NCBI GenBank assembly: GCA_964646945.1
Contig: CAZYIL010000003.1
Span: 1 to 42,895 of the forward strand
Origin: an uncultured Marinoscillum sp.
Lineage (GTDB): Bacteria > Bacteroidota > Bacteroidia > Cytophagales > MED-G16
Length of the DNA: 42,895 nucleotides
Direction: 5' to 3'
The position numbers and the translations under genes are program-made. Positions 1,138-9,555 of the stretch are shown one piece after another; position 1 is the stretch's first letter, and each line of letters begins with the position of its first letter. The notes beneath the pieces are model-generated. The model was not told the DNA's origin. It saw only the letters and a list, made by a program, of their open reading frames with translations, and ran no database searches.

Positions 1138-1145
1138 TATATTTG
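1138..1145 (+). promoter_or_regulatory. Bacteroidota -7 promoter box (TAnnTTTG) for the repeat-protein gene
   Basis: TATATTTG matches the consensus and lies in the intergenic region about 120 nt upstream of ATG 1266. Confidence 0.55.
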
Positions 1146-1156
1146 TATACTTTTTG

Positions 1157-1222
1157 AAATTATTTTATAATCGAATAATGATTTGTGTTTTGTTATCGTT
1201 AAACTCTATTATAAAATAATTT
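1157..1222 (+). repeat. Perfect 15-bp inverted repeat / long 5'-UTR stem-loop
   Basis: AAATTATTTTATAAT (1157-1171) is the exact reverse complement of ATTATAAAATAATTT (1208-1222). An inner stem 1172-1181/1190-1198 can form with G-U pairs. Confidence 0.6.
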
Positions 1223-1265
1223 TTTAAATTTTTTTTTAATTTAATTAATTATAAATATAAATATT

Positions 1266-2315
1266 ATGAAAAGAGTACATGATAAATTAAATATTTTGAT
1301 TGTTTGCACTGTGGTAGCGATTGCTGCAGTTGGTTATCTTCTTATACAAACAGGAACTATTGATCCAACTATGGCTTCAGGTTCTGGTATAACAAGTATT
1401 AAAAAAGCTGAAAAGTATTCTAAAAAGAATACTGTTGAAGTAGAATTAGAAGGTGAAGAAATGCAAGAAGTTTTGCAGAACGAAAACTTCATGAGTATGA
1501 TTGGATCACCTGAATTTGCTAAACTAGTTGAAAACGATGAATTTTTAAAAGTTCTTGACGATCCTGTGTTTAGCATTGTAGCTGATGTATTGGGAAATGG
1601 TGAATTAATGAGTAATGAACCTTTGACATCTCAAGGAAGAGACGGTGGAGGATTAGGGAAGGATTTAAGAGAAGGAACAGTAGGAGGTACTGGTGCAGAT
1701 TTTAACCCAGACAGAGGTGCTGCAGGTGGTGGTGTTAGAGATGGTAATACTCATATCTCTCAATCAGGTGGTGAAAACTTTGGTCCTGACAATATTTCTA
1801 ATTCAGGAGGAAAAGGTCCAGGAAAACTTCTTATGAAAATGGGAGAATTTCAAAAATTCTTGAAAGGAGCTGATTTTCAAAAGTTTGCTAATAGAGCTGA
1901 ATTTCAAAAGTTCATGAAAAGTGGAGCTGATTTTTCAAAATTTGCGAAAGATGCTGCATTTCAAAAATTTCAGAAAGGAGCTGATTTTCAAAAATTTCAA
2001 AAAGGAGCTAATTTTCAAAAATTCATGAAAGATGCTACTTTACAAAAATTCATGAAAGGAGCTGATCTTCAAAAGTTTGCTAAAGGAGCTGATCTTCAAA
2101 AGTTTGCTAAAGGAGCTGCTTTTGCAAAATTTGCTAAAAATCAAGACTTTATGAAGTTCATGAAAGGAGCTGATTTTCAAAAATTTATGAAAAGTGGAGC
2201 TTACGATAATTTTGATAATGGAGCTTCTTTTCAAAAATTCATGAAAGGCGCTGATTTTCAAAAATTCATGAAAGGCGCTGAATTCCAAAAATTTCAGAAA
2301 GGCGCTGTAGAGTAA
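1266..2315 (+). CDS. Hypothetical N-terminally anchored/secreted protein with 9-aa tandem repeats (KGADFQKFM)
   Basis: 349-aa ORF. N-terminal hydrophobic segment (LNILIVCTVVAIAAVGYLLI), acidic 9-aa-periodic block, Gly-rich linker, about 17 basic 9-aa repeats. Has its own promoter box and terminator. Confidence 0.9.
   Translation: MKRVHDKLNILIVCTVVAIAAVGYLLIQTGTIDPTMASGSGITSIKKAEKYSKKNTVEVELEGEEMQEVLQNENFMSMIGSPEFAKLVENDEFLKVLDDPVFSIVADVLGNGELMSNEPLTSQGRDGGGLGKDLREGTVGGTGADFNPDRGAAGGGVRDGNTHISQSGGENFGPDNISNSGGKGPGKLLMKMGEFQKFLKGADFQKFANRAEFQKFMKSGADFSKFAKDAAFQKFQKGADFQKFQKGANFQKFMKDATLQKFMKGADLQKFAKGADLQKFAKGAAFAKFAKNQDFMKFMKGADFQKFMKSGAYDNFDNGASFQKFMKGADFQKFMKGAEFQKFQKGAVE
1836..2312 (+). 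repeat. Imperfect 27-nt coding tandem repeat, about 17 copies (consensus AAA GGA GCT GAT TTT CAA AAA TTC ATG)
   Basis: Units read directly: KMGEFQKFL, KGADFQKFA, NRAEFQKFM, KSGADFSKFA, KDAAFQKFQ, KGADFQKFQ, KGANFQKFM, KDATLQKFM, KGADLQKFA x2, KGAAFAKFA, KNQDFMKFM, KGADFQKFM, KSGAYDNFD, NGASFQKFM, KGADFQKFM, KGAEFQKFQ. Confidence 0.95.
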
Positions 2316-2336
2316 TAGTTATTATTATTTGTTTTT

Positions 2337-2376
2337 AAAAAGGGAGAAAATAAGAATATTTTCTCCTTTTTTTTTT
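2337..2376 (+). terminator. Rho-independent terminator after the repeat-protein gene
   Basis: AAAAAGGGAGAAAATA-AGAA-TATTTTCTCCTTTT hairpin followed by a T-run, about 21 nt after the stop codon. Confidence 0.88.
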
Positions 2377-2405
2377 ATCTTCATGATACAAAATATTTTG
2401 AAGTG

Positions 2406-5400
2406 ATGAAAAAGTTCTTTATTCTAATTTTCTTTTCGATTCTTTTCAGTTTTAATTCTTTATTTTCTCAATTAAATAAGTTAGAGATTTCTGATTTTCA
2501 TATAGTTACTCTTAGTTTTGCTCATTCTCACATTCTACCACATGCTGCTCGATGTGCTCATAATGCACTTAATTTTCATAGAAAATTATTTGATTATGAA
2601 CCTAGAGAGAAAATCTATGTTATGATACAAGATTTCGGTGATTATGGAAATGGTGGTGCAACTTCCTTACCTAATAACATGGTTTCAACGTGTATTTCTC
2701 CTATGAATTACGCTTTTGAATCCAGTGTTGCTGGGGAAAGAGTATTTGCTATCATGAATCATGAACTTGTACATATTACAGCCTTAGATAATTATTCCAA
2801 TACTGATGTTTTCTATAGAAATCTTTTTGGTGGAAAGGTTAGAAATACAAATGATCATCCTATCTCTATGTTATACAGTTATCTTACCAATCCAAGATAT
2901 TATTCTCCTAGATGGTTTCATGAGGGTATTGCTGTATTTGTTGAAACTTGGATGGATGCCGGTACTGGTAACGCTCTTGGTAACTACGATGAAATGTTTT
3001 TTAGAACTAGAACATTTGAAAATTCTAGAATTTATTCTGCTCAAGGTTTGGAATCAGAAGGAACTTCAGCAGATTTCATGTCTAAAGCTAATTCTTATTA
3101 TTATGGAACTAGATTTATGAGTTATGTTGCTTATGAGTATGGACCTGATAATCTAATAGAATGGATAAAAAGAAAAGATGGAAGTAAACGTGGATTTGCT
3201 TCAAACTTTAAAAATGTTTTTGGTTTATCAATAAGTAAAGCTTGGAATAATTGGATCGATTTTGAAAGATCTTTTCAGAAAAAAAATATAGAGGGACTTA
3301 AAAAATATTCTGTAACGGAATATGAAAAAGTGACAGAAAGAGTTCTTGGAGGTGTTTCATATGCTTTTCATGATAAAAAAAAAAATAAAATTTATGTTGC
3401 TGTTAATTATCCTGGAAAAATACCACACATAGCAAGTATAAATTTACTAACGGGAGAAATTGATAGATTAAAGGATGTTAAAGGTCCTGCCCTTTTCAAT
3501 GTTACTTCGCTTGCTTATGATGAAAAAAATGATTTATTATTTTATACAACTGATAACAGTGCAAATAGAGATTTAAACAGTTATAATTTAAAAACAAAAG
3601 AATCTATATTATTACAAAAGGATTGTCATATTGGAGATTTAGCTTTTAACAAAAAAGATGAATCTATATGGGGAGTTAGACATCTGAATGGATATAATAC
3701 CATCGTGAGAATGCCAAAATACAATTCTGAATTTCCAAACGATTATTATATCAATTGGGAACAAAAATATACTTTACCTTATGGTCAAGATATTTTTGAT
3801 ATAGATGTATCACCTGATGGTCAAAAGCTTAGTGGAGCAGTTACTGATTATTTTGGAAATCAATATCTTAATATCTATGACATAGAATCGTTTGATAATG
3901 AAAATAAAGATGACATCATTTATAAAGAAGTTTTTAATTTTGATGTGGCTTCTCCACAAAGTTTTAGATATACAGAAAATGGAGATTTTTTGATAGGATC
4001 TTCATATTATACTGGTGTAAGCAATATATGGAGAGTTAATACAAAAACTTATGAAGCTGATGACATTAATCTAATGTCTAATGCTATTACTGGATATTTT
4101 AGACCTTTAGAAATTGATTCTGATAGATTATTTGCTTTTAAGTATACCAGTGATGGCTTCCTTCCTGTTTATATACCTAACATAATCATTGAAAATATTG
4201 AAACGATTCAATATTTAGGAAATGAAACAATTAAAAAACATTCTAAACTTGAGGAATGGGAAAATGCTATACCTACTTCAAAGAATGTTAATTTAGATGA
4301 AATAACTGTTGATGATGGTTATTATTTACCTAGAAAAGAAATGAAATTAAATTATGCTTATCCAATTGTTATAGGGTATAAGGATAATGTTGGTGTAGGG
4401 TATAAGTTTAATTTTGAAGATCCATTCAGCTTAAGATCTATTGATTTTTCTTTTTCATTCACACCAACAAAATGGAAAAATGGATTAAGTGATGGAAGTG
4501 TTGATATTGAGAAAGATGAACAATTGCATGCTTCTTTCAATTTTTCAACTAGTAAAGCAGGAGGCTTTTTGTCTGGAAATTATGATTTCTTTGCTCATTA
4601 TAATAAGGATAATTTTTATGATTTATTTGGTCCAACAAAAAGATCTAGAAAAGGATTATTATTTGGGTTTAACAATAGAAGATCTTTAGTTTTTGATGGT
4701 CCTAAAAACTTGGATTTAAGTCTTGGGTTTAGGGGTTTTTATGGCTTAGATCAATCTCCAGATTTTCAGCAGATTGATAATTTTGATAAGGACTATGATA
4801 CTAATCTATTTTATGATATTTTTTCCTCTCTGTCATTTAGAAATATAAGGAGATCAGTGGGAGCTGTGGATGGAGAGAAGGGTATTCTTATGTCTGTAAC
4901 TGGTTCTTCTTCGATTACTGAGGGAGCTTTTTATCCTACCTTTACAGGAAATTTTGATTTAGGGTTACAACTACCTATTAATCATACATCTCTTTGGCTT
5001 AGAAATGCTGCTGGTAATTCATTTAGTAAAGAGGTAAATCCTTTTTCAAGATTTGGATTTGCTGCTTTTGGAAACAATTATATCGACTATCTATCTTCAA
5101 AACGGTATAGGGGTACGTATTCTTTTCCAGGTGTGAGTTTTGATTCCGGAGAAAACATTATTGCTAAAACATTTTATAAGCTCACTGCAGAGTTATTGCT
5201 TCCTCCAGTAAGGTATAGAAAAGTTGGTTTTTTTAATTTCTTCGCATCTTGGTCTCATCCTACAATTTTTGCAGGATTTCTTACTGCAAAAGATATTAAT
5301 ATTTCTGGAATAGATATTAAAGAAAATTTTTATAATATTGGAATTCAGTTAGATACAAGGTTGGTGATGTTTTCTCACCTAGCTTCAACTTTATCAGTTG

Positions 5401-5474
5401 GTTGGGCAAGAGCATATGATATGGAAAATTCTAATAAATCTTATGATGAATGGATGATATCGTTAAAGTTTTAA
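2406..5474 (+). CDS. Outer-membrane protein: gluzincin (HEXXH) peptidase + TolB/WD40-like beta-propeller + C-terminal Omp85-like beta-barrel
   Basis: Signal peptide ending LFS-Q. HELVH (nt 2760-2774) with downstream PRWFHEGIAVF. Central propeller-like blades (DIDVSPDGQKLSG, SFRYTENGDFLIG). Amphipathic strands in the last ~380 aa ending in a beta-signal WMISLKF. ATG 2406 preferred over GTG 2403. Confidence 0.75.
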   Translation: MKKFFILIFFSILFSFNSLFSQLNKLEISDFHIVTLSFAHSHILPHAARCAHNALNFHRKLFDYEPREKIYVMIQDFGDYGNGGATSLPNNMVSTCISPMNYAFESSVAGERVFAIMNHELVHITALDNYSNTDVFYRNLFGGKVRNTNDHPISMLYSYLTNPRYYSPRWFHEGIAVFVETWMDAGTGNALGNYDEMFFRTRTFENSRIYSAQGLESEGTSADFMSKANSYYYGTRFMSYVAYEYGPDNLIEWIKRKDGSKRGFASNFKNVFGLSISKAWNNWIDFERSFQKKNIEGLKKYSVTEYEKVTERVLGGVSYAFHDKKKNKIYVAVNYPGKIPHIASINLLTGEIDRLKDVKGPALFNVTSLAYDEKNDLLFYTTDNSANRDLNSYNLKTKESILLQKDCHIGDLAFNKKDESIWGVRHLNGYNTIVRMPKYNSEFPNDYYINWEQKYTLPYGQDIFDIDVSPDGQKLSGAVTDYFGNQYLNIYDIESFDNENKDDIIYKEVFNFDVASPQSFRYTENGDFLIGSSYYTGVSNIWRVNTKTYEADDINLMSNAITGYFRPLEIDSDRLFAFKYTSDGFLPVYIPNIIIENIETIQYLGNETIKKHSKLEEWENAIPTSKNVNLDEITVDDGYYLPRKEMKLNYAYPIVIGYKDNVGVGYKFNFEDPFSLRSIDFSFSFTPTKWKNGLSDGSVDIEKDEQLHASFNFSTSKAGGFLSGNYDFFAHYNKDNFYDLFGPTKRSRKGLLFGFNNRRSLVFDGPKNLDLSLGFRGFYGLDQSPDFQQIDNFDKDYDTNLFYDIFSSLSFRNIRRSVGAVDGEKGILMSVTGSSSITEGAFYPTFTGNFDLGLQLPINHTSLWLRNAAGNSFSKEVNPFSRFGFAAFGNNYIDYLSSKRYRGTYSFPGVSFDSGENIIAKTFYKLTAELLLPPVRYRKVGFFNFFASWSHPTIFAGFLTAKDINISGIDIKENFYNIGIQLDTRLVMFSHLASTLSVGWARAYDMENSNKSYDEWMISLKF

Positions 5475-5485
5475 ACTAAAAATAA

Positions 5486-6262
5486 ATGAAACATATTTTT
5501 GTAAAAAGCATTTCTGGTACAATTATGGTAACCCTTCTTTATTTGGTCTTATTTTATCCACTTGTTTTAATTCATAGGTTTGATTGGTATGATTTAATGT
5601 TAGTTACCCTATCTATCAGTCCAGGTATTTTTATTATGTTTTTCATATATCATTCTGATGAATATGATAAAGAACCAGTAAGTCTTCTTGCGACAAGTTT
5701 CATCATGGGAGCAATGAATTTGCATTTAGATGTAGATATACTTGAATTTTTCTTTTCATATATTAATGTAGAAAATAACTTTCTTAGAGTAGGAGGTGAG
5801 GCCTTAACAGTCTCTATTACGGAAGAAATGTTAAAATTTTTGGTTGTAATATTAATTATTTTTCCAAATAAAAGCTTTGATGAACCTTTTGATGGGATAG
5901 TGTATTCAGTATTTGTTGGAATGGGATTTGCAACGGCTGAGAATATAACTTATGTACTACAAGGATCTTCAACAGTAGCTCTTTTTAGAATGATAACAGC
6001 AGTTCCAGCTCATTTTGCTTTTGCTGTTATTATGGGTTACTACTTAGGTAAAGCCAAGACTTGTAATCAGGGTAAAATGTGGTTTTATATATTTTTATCT
6101 TTGTTTGTTTCTATTTTCATGCATGCCATTTATGATTATTTTTTATTTTTAGATTTTGTTCCTGGTATATGGTTAGGTGGAATAATTACATTGGGAGTTG
6201 CTATTCTGTTTTCTAGAATGGCAATTATAGAACATCTTGAAGCTTCTCCTTTTAAAAAATAA
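5486..6262 (+). CDS. prsW: PrsW-family intramembrane metalloprotease
   Basis: DEYDKEP, EEMLK, FDEPFDGIVY, GMGFATAEN, AVPAH and HAIYD motifs; multiple TM segments. Confidence 0.88.
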   Translation: MKHIFVKSISGTIMVTLLYLVLFYPLVLIHRFDWYDLMLVTLSISPGIFIMFFIYHSDEYDKEPVSLLATSFIMGAMNLHLDVDILEFFFSYINVENNFLRVGGEALTVSITEEMLKFLVVILIIFPNKSFDEPFDGIVYSVFVGMGFATAENITYVLQGSSTVALFRMITAVPAHFAFAVIMGYYLGKAKTCNQGKMWFYIFLSLFVSIFMHAIYDYFLFLDFVPGIWLGGIITLGVAILFSRMAIIEHLEASPFKK

Positions 6263-6343: not shown

Positions 6344-7615
6344 ATGTCTTTAATTCTAAAATCGTTATTAGTTTTTGATTTAAACTCAGACTTTAATTCT
6401 AAAAAAGTAAATATTTTAATAGGAAATGATGGTAACATAAAAAAGATTAGTTCCCATTCAATCAAAACTTCAGCTACTAAAACTATAGATTGTAATGGGA
6501 TGATGGTTTCTCCTGGATGGTTTGATTTTAGATCTAATTTTTGTGATCCAGGATATGAACATAAGGAGGATTTAATTTCTGGTTCTTATACAGCAGCTTG
6601 TTCTGGGTTTACAGATATACTTCTTATGCCTAATACTAATCCGGTTTTGCAATCAAAAAATGATATTTCATATGTCAAGAACAAAACATTAAATGAACTC
6701 ACTTCTGTACATCCTTGTGCTGCTCTTACAAAAAACACTGATGGGATAGAATTAAATGAGATTTTAGACCTTGATAAAGCAGGTGCGATTGCTTTTACTG
6801 ATGGAGAGAAAGAAATTCAAAATTCTGATATTTTGTATAAATCTTTGCTTTATATGAATCAATTTGATGGATTATTAATAAATAAACCTAGGGATTATAA
6901 CCTTTCCAAACTTGGAATGGTAAATGAAGGAATCAGTAGCACGCTAACAGGTATTCAAGGCATCCCAAATATTGCAGAGGAGATAATGATAAAAAGAGAT
7001 TTATCTATCTTAAAATATTCGGGGGGAAAAATTCATTTTTCTGGTATATCAACCAAATCGTCTGTTGATATAATCAGAAAAGCTAAAGCTGAAGGGTTAA
7101 ATGTCTCATGTGATGTTTCAATTTATAATGTATTATTGGATGATAGTTCAATATTAAATTTTGAAACCAATTATAAATTAGATCCTCCTTTAAGAACAAA
7201 AAAAGATATAGATGCTTTAATAGATGGTTTAATAGATGGTACTATAGACGTAATTTCTTCTTATCATCAACCTCAAAATATAGAAAACAAAGATGTTGAA
7301 TTTTATTCTGCTAGATATGGAATGATTTCACTTCAAACATTTTTTAGCAATATCTTAATATTATCTAATAAAATAGATCTAGAATTACTCATTCCAAAAT
7401 TTACAACAAACCCTAGAAAAATATTAAACTTACCAGAAAGAGTTATTAAGATAGGTTCTCCAGCTTTATTAACCATTTTTGATAAGAACTCTTCATGGGA
7501 TTATAATATAGAAAATAATTTATCGAAATCTTATAATTCACCTTGGTTAGATTGGTCTTTAAGAGGAATGGTATTTGGAGTCGTAAATTCTAAAAAATCG
7601 ATATTTAATCATTAA
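6344..7615 (+). CDS. pyrC: Dihydroorotase-family protein with degenerate metal ligands
   Basis: PGYEHKED, MPNTNP, KLDPPLR, DGTID and SKSYNSPW motifs of long-type DHOase. HxH is replaced by RSN and TDHAP by SYHQP. Confidence 0.8.
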   Translation: MSLILKSLLVFDLNSDFNSKKVNILIGNDGNIKKISSHSIKTSATKTIDCNGMMVSPGWFDFRSNFCDPGYEHKEDLISGSYTAACSGFTDILLMPNTNPVLQSKNDISYVKNKTLNELTSVHPCAALTKNTDGIELNEILDLDKAGAIAFTDGEKEIQNSDILYKSLLYMNQFDGLLINKPRDYNLSKLGMVNEGISSTLTGIQGIPNIAEEIMIKRDLSILKYSGGKIHFSGISTKSSVDIIRKAKAEGLNVSCDVSIYNVLLDDSSILNFETNYKLDPPLRTKKDIDALIDGLIDGTIDVISSYHQPQNIENKDVEFYSARYGMISLQTFFSNILILSNKIDLELLIPKFTTNPRKILNLPERVIKIGSPALLTIFDKNSSWDYNIENNLSKSYNSPWLDWSLRGMVFGVVNSKKSIFNH

Positions 7616-7627
7616 ATTAAATTTTTT

Positions 7628-8590
7628 ATGAATTTATCAATTGTTATTCCTGCTTATAACGAAGACGAATCTATTCCTGAATTAATTACTTCGATAAAAA
7701 ACAATGTACCATCATCTATAAAATATGAAGTTATTATTGTAGATGATGGAAGCACTGATAACACATGGAAAATTATTGAAAATCAAGTAAATGAAAATAA
7801 TTTTTTGAAAGGAATTCGATTTCTTAAAAATTATGGAAAATCAGCTGCTTTAGATATTGGATTTAAATATTCATCAGGAGAAGTAATTATTACAATGGAT
7901 GCAGATTTACAGGATGATCCCATTGAAATAGAATCTCTTTATAATATGATTCTTGATAAGAATTATGATTTAATCTCAGGATGGAAGAAAAAAAGATTTG
8001 ATCCAATTACAAAAACATTGCCTTCAAAATTTTTTAATTTTGTAACAAGAGTTTTTTCAGGTATTAAACTAAATGATTTTAATTGCGGAATTAAAGCTTA
8101 TAAAAAATCAGTAGTTAAGAGTATTTCAATTTATGGTGAAATGCATAGATATATACCTTTAATAGCAAAATGGAATGGATTTAATAACATAGGTGAAAAA
8201 GTAGTGAAACATAATCCTAGGAAATACGGTAAAACAAAATTTGGTTTAGAGAGATTTATTAATGGTTTTTTAGATTTAATTTCGGTCAGTTTTGTTTATA
8301 AATTTAAAAAGAAACCAATGCATTTCTTTGGGAGTTTGGGAGTTATCTCCTTTTTTTTAGGATTACTTAGTACATCTTGGATCATTTATGATAAGATGTC
8401 AAAAATTTCTGAAGGTATTCCAATAAATGAAATTAGACCAGTTACTGATCAACCACTTTTCTATATAGCATTAGTCTCTATAATTATAGGAGCTCAACTT
8501 TTTCTGGCTGGCTTTTTAGCTGAGATTATTATCAAAGTTAATTCTAAAAATGATGATCAAGTTATCAGTGACAAGAAAGGCTTCAGTTAA
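7628..8590 (+). CDS. GT2 glycosyltransferase (polyprenol-phosphate sugar synthase, ArnC/DPM1-like)
   Basis: VIPAYNE, VDDGSTD, NYGKSAAL, TMDADLQDDP, DFNCGIKAY, GEMHRYIP; two C-terminal TM helices. Confidence 0.9.
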   Translation: MNLSIVIPAYNEDESIPELITSIKNNVPSSIKYEVIIVDDGSTDNTWKIIENQVNENNFLKGIRFLKNYGKSAALDIGFKYSSGEVIITMDADLQDDPIEIESLYNMILDKNYDLISGWKKKRFDPITKTLPSKFFNFVTRVFSGIKLNDFNCGIKAYKKSVVKSISIYGEMHRYIPLIAKWNGFNNIGEKVVKHNPRKYGKTKFGLERFINGFLDLISVSFVYKFKKKPMHFFGSLGVISFFLGLLSTSWIIYDKMSKISEGIPINEIRPVTDQPLFYIALVSIIIGAQLFLAGFLAEIIIKVNSKNDDQVISDKKGFS

Positions 8591-9555
8591 TGAAATTTTC
8601 TATCGTAATTCCTGTTTATAATAGACCTGATGAAATCAATAATCTAATTCAAAGCATTACTAATCAAAGCTTTAAAGATTTAGAAGTTATAGTTGTAGAA
8701 GATGGTTCAGATGTCAGTTCTGAAAAAACAATGGATAAGTTTAAGAAAAATATTAATTTAAAATATTATAAAAAAAGAAATGAAGGACCAGGATTGGCTA
8801 GAAATTATGGTTCAAAATTTGCTCTAGGAAAATGGATTATTTTTTTAGATTCAGATTGTATTATTCCAGTTAATTATTTTGATGAAATCAATCGGTTTCT
8901 GAGTCTCAATGAAAATGTTGATTTTTTTGGTGGTCCTGACAGGGCAAATAAAAACTTCACATTATTACAGAAGTCCATAAATTATTCAATGACTTCAATG
9001 TTAACTTCCGGTGGCATTAGAGGATCAAAGTTTTCTTTAGACACATTTTTACCTAGATCTTTTAATATGGGAGTTAAAAAGAAAATTTTTGATCAAGTCA
9101 AAGGTTTTTCATCAATGAGATTTGGTGAAGATTTAGATTTGTCTTATAGATTGATTTCATTTGGAGCAAAATCAAAACTAATAGACAAAGCTTTTGTTTA
9201 TCATCAAAGAAGAAATGATTTGAAAGGATTTTTCAAACAAATTTATTCTTCAGGAGAAGCTAGAGTGATTTTAAATAGACAACATAAAGGCACATTCAGA
9301 ATTTTTCATTTATTTCCATCTTTTTTTATATTATTTTTTGTTCTAGTACATTTTCTTTTATTATTTAAAATTGATTATGACTTAATTAAACTGATTCAAA
9401 TTATTTATGGTTTTTATTTTGTTCTAATATTTATTGAATCAAGCATATTAAATAAAAACCCTATAATTGGACTTCTATCTATAGTAACTACATTTATTCA
9501 ATTTTTAAGTTATGGGATTGGATACTTAAGATCAACTATTAAAGTTTATTTATAA
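8590..9555 (+). CDS. GT2 glycosyltransferase
   Basis: VIPVYNRP, VEDGS, GPGLARNYG, FLDSDC, PRSFNMG, GEDLDL. TAATG overlap with the upstream gene. Confidence 0.9.
   Translation: MKFSIVIPVYNRPDEINNLIQSITNQSFKDLEVIVVEDGSDVSSEKTMDKFKKNINLKYYKKRNEGPGLARNYGSKFALGKWIIFLDSDCIIPVNYFDEINRFLSLNENVDFFGGPDRANKNFTLLQKSINYSMTSMLTSGGIRGSKFSLDTFLPRSFNMGVKKKIFDQVKGFSSMRFGEDLDLSYRLISFGAKSKLIDKAFVYHQRRNDLKGFFKQIYSSGEARVILNRQHKGTFRIFHLFPSFFILFFVLVHFLLLFKIDYDLIKLIQIIYGFYFVLIFIESSILNKNPIIGLLSIVTTFIQFLSYGIGYLRSTIKVYL

Follow-up and report, generated by a model that had tools for sequence, protein, structure and literature searches.

The window analysed here is a 42,895-nucleotide stretch of DNA from an uncultured Marinoscillum sp. 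(contig CAZYIL010000003.1), and close to its start lie three co-oriented genes coding for a predicted membrane-anchored nonapeptide-repeat protein (rep), a large predicted outer-membrane protein combining a peptidase, a propeller and a barrel (big), and a PrsW-family intramembrane protease. The genes of this trio travel together across phyla. According to its predicted structure, big is a POTRA-less barrel resembling those of the Omp85 superfamily, preceded by an N-terminal zinc peptidase and a TolB-like propeller, and rep is predicted to be anchored in the inner membrane with a periplasmic tail of short, helix-type nonapeptides. We consider the chances about even that rep, big and PrsW form one envelope-spanning module of regulated proteolysis, of which the window would hold the sigma-less core that is typical of Bacteroidia. 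The module probably acts by the controlled cutting of its anchored protein, since it is usually found beside a stress sigma factor and its inhibitor. The three genes, with lengths in amino acids (aa), are:

1266-2315, + strand: rep, a predicted bitopic inner-membrane protein of 349 aa (open reading frame (ORF) call)
2406-5474 (start at 2403 or 2406), + strand: big, a predicted outer-membrane protein of 1022 aa (ORF call)
5486-6262, + strand: gene for a PrsW-family intramembrane protease of 258 aa (PF13367)

A first-pass annotation of this DNA had described three co-oriented genes between purA and a pyrC-like gene, with a PrsW-family protease gene starting 11 nucleotides (nt) after big. The layout was recovered as described, all on the + strand, with a spacer of 11 nt (5475-5485) and a PF13367 match (E 3e-32) for the protease. 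The same annotation had rep as an N-terminally anchored repeat protein, and big as a protein with a signal peptide, an HExxH...E site, a propeller and a barrel ending in Phe. The hydrophobic residues 8-27 and about 17 nonapeptide repeats agree with the former, and every feature of the latter was found.

A word-based search with big, in which 8000 candidates were scored, gave at least 2816 homologues; among the 120 best matches listed, the names given by the source were "hypothetical" apart from one lactonase label, which is a misnomer. Within the family to which the window belongs, big is present in 16 of 24 genomes, and it was found in none of 16 genomes taken from other families within the order. 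All 16 related genomes with big have PrsW following it, and rep precedes it in 15, the sixteenth locus ending at a contig edge. In a sample of 401 genomes spread evenly over the phylum, 60 had a match to big, and a PrsW match adjoins big in 19 of the 21 sampled genomes whose homologue reaches at least 38% identity. PrsW was found in 82 of the 401 genomes, many of them without big, so PrsW alone is not specific to the module.

With one genome per species, big has at least 450 relatives, and the loci of the best 80 of these were surveyed. Labels were assigned to stop-to-stop ORFs using jackhmmer from Pfam-checked seeds, and loci with a short flank were set aside (7 of the 80 for downstream, 18 for upstream and 26 for far-upstream counts). 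All 73 evaluable loci contain PrsW (directly downstream of big in 68), and the ORF directly upstream of big belongs to the anchored family in 58 of 62. A tandem array with a coding period lies upstream of big in 41 of 62 loci, and for 33 of these 41 the period is a multiple of 27 nt. The loci come from Bacteroidia, Ignavibacteriales, Balneolaceae, Rhodothermaceae, Chlorobiaceae, Zixibacteria, KSB1, several classes of Acidobacteriota, Eisenbacteria, Latescibacterota, Calditrichota, Fibrobacteraceae and Neomarinimicrobiota, as well as, in a few cases, from metagenome-assembled genomes (MAGs) labelled Gammaproteobacteria or Chondromyces. In a separate set of 20 loci, a family search placed PrsW beside big in the GC-rich loci L024, L025, L026 and L028. 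Synteny across phyla rules out a chance gene order.

The features of rep are as follows:

1287-1346, + strand: codons of the rep membrane anchor (residues 8-27, a hydrophobic stretch that aligns with the anchors of relatives)
1350-1418, + strand: conserved stretch of rep after the membrane (residues 29-51, with TGTI and GSGI..KKAEKY)
1848-2307, + strand: repeat array of rep (about 17 nonapeptides with a unit close to GADFQKFMK, from TRF)

The predicted topology of rep consists of a cytoplasmic N-terminus of 7 residues, one transmembrane (TM) helix and a periplasmic tail. In the alignment of relatives from the window's family, G30, G41, I42, K47, A48 and K50 are invariant, and all members of the rep family carry a short post-membrane stretch beginning with GTI and followed by KKAxKY and a DV-L segment. 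We propose residues 29-51 as a candidate region for recognition or cleavage by PrsW. The very short cytoplasmic N-terminus (1266-1286) is itself conserved in the family (V4 and H5 are nearly invariant, K7 and L11 invariant), which hints at a contact in the cytoplasm even without an anti-sigma domain.

For the array, TRF reports a period of 27 nt, 16.9 copies and 71% matches. When 36 arrays from many phyla are set in a common register, the consensus is approximately (S/N)(P/A)(A/D/E)-F-x-(E/K/Q)-L-(L/M/A)-(A/K), of which the GADFQKFMK of the window is a variant, the repeat unit varying by lineage. Judged by their sequences, the repeat proteins of the different lineages are one family. Within the window's family, variant repeats are kept position by position across genera, so the array has not simply been homogenised; this position-specific conservation also makes a precursor of many identical 9-mer peptides less likely. 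Neither Pfam nor NCBIfam has a family that matches rep, and the Pfam scan gave no two-partner secretion (TPS) domain and no AsmA- or TamB-like domain in it. A C-terminal sorting domain of the type IX secretion system (T9SS) is likewise absent from rep (0 NCBIfam matches and no relevant Pfam family). A word-based search with rep returned 25 hits without useful names, one of them labelled ATP synthase delta subunit by its source, which is surely a repeat artefact. A relation to RTX-type nonapeptides, which carry a GGxGxD pattern, was rejected, as the repeats of rep do not have this pattern, and a link to curli or the T9SS was rejected because no such families were found. Several repeat genes of the loci L021, L025, L035 and L037 contain masked runs (X or N) or are readable only in shifted frames; their repeat counts are therefore unreliable, and such genes are probably under-called in annotations.

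The N-terminus of big resembles a signal peptide, and the rest of the protein is divided as follows:

2475-3299, + strand: helical zinc-peptidase domain of big (residues 24-298; HELVH at 2760-2774, Glu ligand at 2922-2924)
3306-4193, + strand: TolB-like beta-propeller of big (residues 301-596, 6 blades; VIA, Foldseek and PDB profile)
4305-5471, + strand: 16-strand barrel of big, Omp85-superfamily-like (residues 634-1022; long loop L6 at 5022-5168; last residue Phe)

The alignment of big contains 30 homologues, from 81% down to 28% identity. H119, E120, H123 and E173 are invariant in all 30, which indicates that the zinc site is under selection, and the HExxH motif with a downstream Glu ligand is the feature of gluzincins (clan MA). 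The Peptidase_MA_2 match of big itself stays below threshold (E 0.0087, 16.3 bits against a cut-off of 32.4), and 5 of the 30 homologues match this family at E <= 0.01. The AF2 model made on this alignment has a mean pLDDT of 86.6 and a pTM of 0.85, and its order is a helical domain (24-298), a propeller (315-591), three short helices and 16 long strands (647-1021). Foldseek and VIA searches with the full model returned almost only propeller matches. TolB (1c5k) aligns with the propeller at Z 22.5 (root-mean-square deviation (rmsd) 3.0, 243 residues aligned) in VIA, where many other six-blade propellers lie within 2 Z of it; Foldseek gave TolB and WDR5, and a profile search of the PDB gave TolB at E 8e-4. 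A second family in Bacteroidota, made of ORFs of 1050-1400 aa, has only the N-terminal peptidase region in common with big (query residues about 48-290, E 1e-4 to 1e-11), and may be a paralogous, peptidase-bearing outer-membrane family.

The C-terminal 423 residues of big, folded alone, reached a pLDDT of 84.7, and DSSP assigned 16 long strands (647-1021) in the AF2 models, up to the C-terminal Phe. A VIA search with the barrel only, over 48,161 chains and independent of Foldseek, placed Omp85 proteins in all of its top 17 rows (Z 20.4-16.5: BamA of three phyla, FhaC, CdiB, TamA, Sam50 and Toc75), with BamA of D. radiodurans as the best match (Z 20.4, rmsd 4.4, 306 aligned) and the Occ porins as the next class (Z <= 14.8). 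Foldseek returned Toc75, TamA and BamA for the barrel. At the level of sequence, the link to Omp85 is weak but coherent: hhalign of the barrel alignment against 12 BamA-type barrels gave a probability of 80.9% (E 1.2e-5, 237 columns), PF19143 (Omp85_2) touches 2 of the 30 homologues of big at E ~0.002, and PF01103 matches the BamA-type genes of the genome and not big. The lid-lock motifs of Omp85 proteins have been described as (V/I)RG(Y/F) at the tip of L6 and (F/G)xDxG on strand 13 (PMC4490367). In the loop between strands 11 and 12 of big, F888, G889, N890, N891, D894, Y901, R902, F907, P908 and G909 are each at least 90% conserved, with F888, N890, R902 and G909 invariant, and hhalign pairs this L6 loop with the ERFYLGG...LRGY region of the BamA-type barrels. 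A strand further on has an invariant G979 and Q981 and a D983 that is at least 90% conserved, which reads GxQxD and not (F/G)xDxG.

POTRA has no Pfam match in big at E <= 0.1, and no TPS or Omp85 Pfam family matches rep or big. Among the POTRA-less Omp85 subfamilies described by Heinz and Lithgow in 2014 is "WD40-Omp85", which has a TolB-like propeller; the section of that paper dealing with these subfamilies suggests roles in membrane-protein assembly, and gives neither partner genes nor a function (PMC4104836). In the atlas, neighbour clusters combine PD40 and Omp85 in 33% of their members. The order of an enzyme followed by an Omp85 barrel recalls PlpD (PMC11116518), and the option that such fusions export themselves was raised by Heinz and Lithgow (PMC4104836). 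A type Vd-like barrel that displays its own peptidase and propeller on the cell surface, with rep and PrsW as unrelated neighbours, is nevertheless highly improbable for big, considering that PlpD keeps its POTRA and big has none, that the propeller is closest to the periplasmic TolB, and that the neighbours are conserved far beyond what would be expected of unrelated genes.

The genes found upstream of the trio in its relatives point to signalling. ECF (extracytoplasmic-function) sigma genes occur there in 36 of 54 loci, STAS genes in 38 and HATPase_c_2 (RsbW-like) genes in 32, all three identities being Pfam-checked. Such genes usually precede the trio outside Bacteroidia, where most phyla have an ECF sigma gene and an RsiW-like anti-sigma gene in front of it. 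In the sigma-linked loci, the product of the gene after the sigma factor begins with a domain of about 85 residues, which is followed by a TM helix and by the GTI stretch also present in rep. The post-TM GTI motif is thus common to rep-type anchored proteins and to anti-sigma factors in distant loci. A profile built from 21 of these N-termini matched B. subtilis RsiW (5wuq) with an E of 9.3e-12 over residues 5-79, which is the whole solved length, and the next anti-sigma matches were RskA (E 0.12) and RseA (E 0.23). When single anti-sigma N-termini were scanned with Pfam, only sub-threshold zf-HC2 matches were obtained (E ~0.1 in 2 of 5). The RsiW-like domain is present in 40 of the 80 loci, 17 of which were in the search profile itself. 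In 24 it is a separate gene, and in 16 it lies in the ORF directly upstream of big, which means that these 16 loci encode anti-sigma domain, anchor and repeat tail as one fused protein. Further anti-sigma-repeat fusions were found in L020, L024 and L025. The best solved matches of the ECF sigma factor are RpoE/AlgU-type sigmas and SigW (E 2e-28, in the third row), and GAF-SpoIIE phosphatases are nearby in 2 of 5 scanned neighbour genes (L024 and L028). In the sigmaW pathway, PrsW has been described as the protease that makes the site-1 cut in RsiW (PMC10202637, PMC3482391).

The PrsW of the window matches PF13367 with an E of 3.1e-32 (112 bits, cut-off 23.5) and NCBIfam NF033739 with 151 bits, under the equivalog cut-off of 225, which supports membership of the family and not equivalence to B. 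subtilis PrsW. It is the only PrsW match in the genome (1.8 Mb, 80.8% complete), which also encodes one M50 site-2 protease. In the sigma-linked loci (L020-L023, L029, L031, L032 and most of L056-L121), PrsW is a longer protein (about 328-353 aa) and carries at its C-terminus a conserved cytoplasmic extension of some 130 residues, absent from the 258-aa protein of the window. The PF13367 scores of this long form (E 1e-17 to 1e-24) are lower than those of the stand-alone PrsW of the same phylum.

A distant subfamily of big (L033-L038; about 30% identity, 979-1242 aa) shows other arrangements. In L034, L035 and L038, big is preceded by a signal-peptide protein with tandem repeats of 16 residues and not by nonapeptides, and the repeat genes of L036 and L037 are readable only in part. 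L033 and L034, both Pfam-scanned, have a GAF histidine kinase after big without an adjoining PrsW, L034 having in addition a hybrid kinase/receiver gene. As these kinases take the place of PrsW, the pair of a repeat protein and big is linked to different signal-transduction genes depending on the lineage.

Regulated proteolysis by this module would proceed as follows. The peptidase and propeller of big are placed in the periplasm, since the N-terminal domains of Omp85 proteins face that side. The repeat tail would span to the outer membrane, where the propeller would bind it and the peptidase of big would then cut it. PrsW would cut the anchored protein next to the membrane, as it does RsiW in B. 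subtilis, and a general M50 site-2 protease would clear the remaining stub. Where an anti-sigma domain is fused or co-encoded, this cutting would free the sigma factor, and a sigmaW-type pathway of a two-membrane cell would have big as its sensor or trigger. In the Bacteroidia form, the result may be the turnover of a tether between the inner and the outer membrane, or release of the tail. The first-pass annotation had suggested that the periplasmic peptidase or PrsW frees the anchored protein, and the idea that PrsW does so gains from the co-location of PrsW in 73 of 73 loci; the cut itself we infer.

A conserved element between the first two genes is in keeping with unequal amounts of the proteins:

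~2337-2382, + strand: terminator-like hairpin between rep and big (16-pair stem, then a T run)

The spacer between rep and big folds with z < -2 in 57 of 73 loci, compared with 7 of 159 control segments inside big. These 73 loci are the window, 9 loci of its family and 63 of the 80-locus set (spacer of at least 45 nt, no N); the controls were 110-nt segments, and mononucleotide shuffles were used, 20 for each. Since the spacers fold beyond their shuffles and the controls rarely do, the module includes a conserved structured element behind the gene of the repeat protein. The simplest interpretation of this element is that more substrate than protease is made, in which case the hairpin would hold the substrate in excess over its proteases. 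A scan for sigma-70 promoters stayed at chance level (28 found, 31.1 expected). Contigs from metatranscriptomes (four libraries from three studies) lie on rep (1187-2290); they show presence only, as DNA may be in the libraries. Beyond rep, RNA contigs fall only at 4620-4658, 5104-5383 and 5797-5964, and most of big and PrsW is uncovered.

The binding of rep by big was also modelled. Complex prediction for big 22-600 and rep 30-349, using alignments, gave a score of 0.37 (0.44, 0.10 and 0.37 in the separate runs), with 0.00 for the best of 3 controls, a contact agreement between runs of at least 28% and a partner pLDDT of at least 34. Of 80 solved complexes, 58 attain the mark set for the complex score, as do 2 of 110 mismatched pairs; with a score of 0.60 or under, only 7 of the 80 and both of the passing mismatches attain it.

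Several points weigh against regulated proteolysis with a signalling output. The rep protein of the window has only 7 cytoplasmic residues, and its own genome offers no sigma or anti-sigma link. The three ECF sigma genes of this genome are all on other contigs, and the anti-sigma profile has no match at E <= 10 in what is an 80.8%-complete genome; a genome search with a single anti-sigma protein also found nothing. The window therefore holds a sigma-less form, and the signalling output is missing precisely where the module was first found. The known Omp85 proteins insert or translocate proteins, and none is known to act as a sensor. The side of the membrane on which the peptidase would act follows from Omp85 topology only. 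Moreover, the complex prediction lends weak support to the binding of rep by big, and the neighbour labels come from our own ORF calls and jackhmmer seeds, the "anchored" label being partly driven by the repeats. Finally, in the 15 loci of the class Bacteroidia the trio stands by itself, no other gene family occurring in more than 4 of them, and such a self-contained trio is as compatible with an independent function, export for instance, as with signalling. The only Bacteroidia-class locus with an ECF sigma gene is L046, from a Flammeovirgaceae MAG, in which two anchored-repeat genes flank the sigma gene.

Export is the alternative that the first-pass annotation had put forward, in the form of a two-partner-like system. 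PrsW or the peptidase would free the tail of rep, the propeller would replace POTRA as the receptor, and the barrel would translocate the tail, which would act or assemble outside. Where the anti-sigma domain is fused, export or cleavage would feed back on the operon, in the way that the export of FlgM does for sigma-28. The two checks that this annotation had named gave results in its favour, in that the barrel protein and anchored proteins of 9-aa periodicity co-occur across taxa (58 of 62 upstream ORFs, 33 of 41 arrays) and that the C-terminus models as a barrel, specifically of the Omp85 kind. Its statements that no POTRA or TPS motif, T9SS sorting domain or curli gene is present, and that no named secretion type is matched, agree with the Pfam and NCBIfam scans. 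The best matches of the barrel include the translocators FhaC (Z 17.9) and CdiB (Z 17.6) besides BamA, the order of a cargo gene beside a transporter gene is kept across phyla, and the trio stands alone in Bacteroidia. The hairpin also suggests an excess of rep, as for pilins and other subunits, and the RNA contigs of four libraries on rep point weakly the same way, being contigs only from libraries in which DNA may be present.

Against this, the hallmarks of two-partner secretion (type Vb) are missing, as rep has no TPS domain and big no POTRA, and the tail is made of short helix-type units and not of the beta-helix repeats that drive the export of TpsA. The repeats are conserved by position between genera, unlike those of many surface fibres, and the invariant peptidase site beside the propeller suggests cutting and not passage. 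In the distant subfamily the pair adjoins histidine kinases, and there is no sign of an open pore. What stood of the two-partner-like reading is thus the linkage and the barrel; nothing shows export or polymerisation, and the wider context points to regulated proteolysis or signalling at least as strongly. We regard export as unlikely on balance, and hold the same view of its feedback variant.

A further alternative is a role in outer-membrane biogenesis or quality control, resembling that of TAM, in which hydrophobic clients (unfolded outer-membrane proteins or lipids) would be carried on the amphipathic repeats, and stalled ones would be dealt with by the peptidase in the manner of BepA. An Omp85-like barrel with the gene of an anchored partner adjoining is what would be expected in this case, the genes tamA and tamB being adjacent as well. 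The repeats are rich in Phe, Leu and Met with Pro or Gly as punctuation, and in some relatives of rep they drive matches to the STI1/HOP DP and ubiquilin families. Assembly roles have also been proposed for POTRA-less Omp85 proteins, WD40-Omp85 included (PMC4104836). A biogenesis role is all the same improbable, as AsmA- and TamB-like domains are missing from rep, as it leaves unexplained why the genes are strictly linked to PrsW and, for most phyla, also to sigma, RsiW-like, STAS and RsbW genes, and as the patchy distribution (16 of 24 family genomes, 0 of 16 in the other families of the order) is unlike that of core biogenesis factors.

Returning to regulated proteolysis, the closest known system is the SigmaW-RsiW-PrsW pathway of B. 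subtilis, with which the module has in common a PrsW-family protease and a membrane-anchored substrate with an extracytoplasmic tail and, in relatives of the window only, an RsiW-like domain (E 9.3e-12) and an ECF sigma factor that matches SigW (E 2e-28). In contrast to that pathway, the module is found in a host with two membranes, has its PrsW gene within the operon, often comes with RsbW-like and STAS genes, and includes two additional invariant partners, namely the nonapeptide-repeat protein and the Omp85-like peptidase-propeller protein. The version in the window has neither sigma nor anti-sigma factor, the RsiW-like and ECF features being met in relatives only. FecA-FecR-FecI cell-surface signalling offers another parallel, as it relies on an outer-membrane barrel, an inner-membrane anti-sigma factor that crosses the periplasm, an ECF sigma factor and sequential proteolysis. 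The barrel of the module is however Omp85-like and not a TonB-dependent transducer, and has a peptidase and a propeller of its own; PrsW is the candidate site-1 protease, and the periplasmic part is a nonapeptide array.

Compared by architecture only, big is like WD40-Omp85 in having a TolB-like propeller before a POTRA-less, 16-strand barrel of Omp85 type (PMC4104836), and it differs from it in its extra gluzincin domain and in not being detected by PF01103. The gene arrangement is reminiscent of TpsA/TpsB and TamA/TamB, where an Omp85-type protein is encoded beside a repeat-rich or periplasm-spanning partner, but the TPS, POTRA and AsmA/TamB-like domains are absent, and rep is held by an uncleaved N-terminal helix and linked to PrsW. 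BepA-BAM likewise has a periplasmic zinc metallopeptidase at an Omp85 barrel (PMC8423444), whereas in big the peptidase and the barrel form a single protein, the peptidase is of another family (MA_2-like), and a dedicated repeat protein is encoded next to it. The parts of the module are thus known families (PrsW, clan MA peptidases, TolB-like propellers and Omp85-like barrels and, in relatives, ECF sigma factors with RsiW-like anti-sigma factors), and their combination was not found in print. Our literature search found no paper on a rep/big/PrsW module, although supplementary tables may list the sigma group or the barrel subfamily; in the main text of the 2021 ECF re-classification by Casas-Pastor, the terms "PrsW" and "STAS" are absent.

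Some copies of big are broken. In G005 (L017/L018) two overlapping frames code for it between them (residues 2-776 and 759-1023), in G413 it contains three in-frame stops, and contig ends truncate the copies of G403 and G076; frameshifts, decay or assembly breaks may account for these cases. The trio of the window is flanked by the following genes, and the G+C content of this start region with its five ORFs is about 24-36%:

1-1107, + strand: purA fragment (Pfam Adenylsucc_synt match, E 1e-134)
6344-7615, + strand: pyrC-like (dihydroorotase-like) gene (TIGR00857, 302 bits against a cut-off of 279)
7628-9555: pair of family-2 glycosyltransferase genes, after the dihydroorotase-like gene

Taken as a whole, the proposed pathway would cross the envelope in at least 10 phyla, with an Omp85-family big engaging the tail of rep and PrsW cutting its anchor. 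In most lineages it would be a two-membrane counterpart of sigmaW-RsiW-PrsW with a sensor in the outer membrane, and in Bacteroidia a sigma-free machine for release or export. We hold this full picture tentatively, at somewhat less than an even chance. If the picture is true, a large orphan family of at least 2816 proteins and at least 450 species-level loci, whose carriers are mostly abundant marine and soil bacteria and not pathogens, would gain a function and partners. The picture would also add a POTRA-less, enzyme-bearing member to the Omp85 superfamily, whose studied members all insert or translocate proteins. The fused anti-sigma-repeat proteins render the hypothesis directly testable with a sigma reporter. 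The PrsW/RsiW-type pathway has so far been worked out in single-membrane Firmicutes, and the module would show how it connects to the outer membrane in Bacteroidota, Ignavibacteria, Acidobacteriota and candidate phyla; a counterpart of sigmaW with an outer-membrane sensor would constitute a new class of cell-surface signalling.

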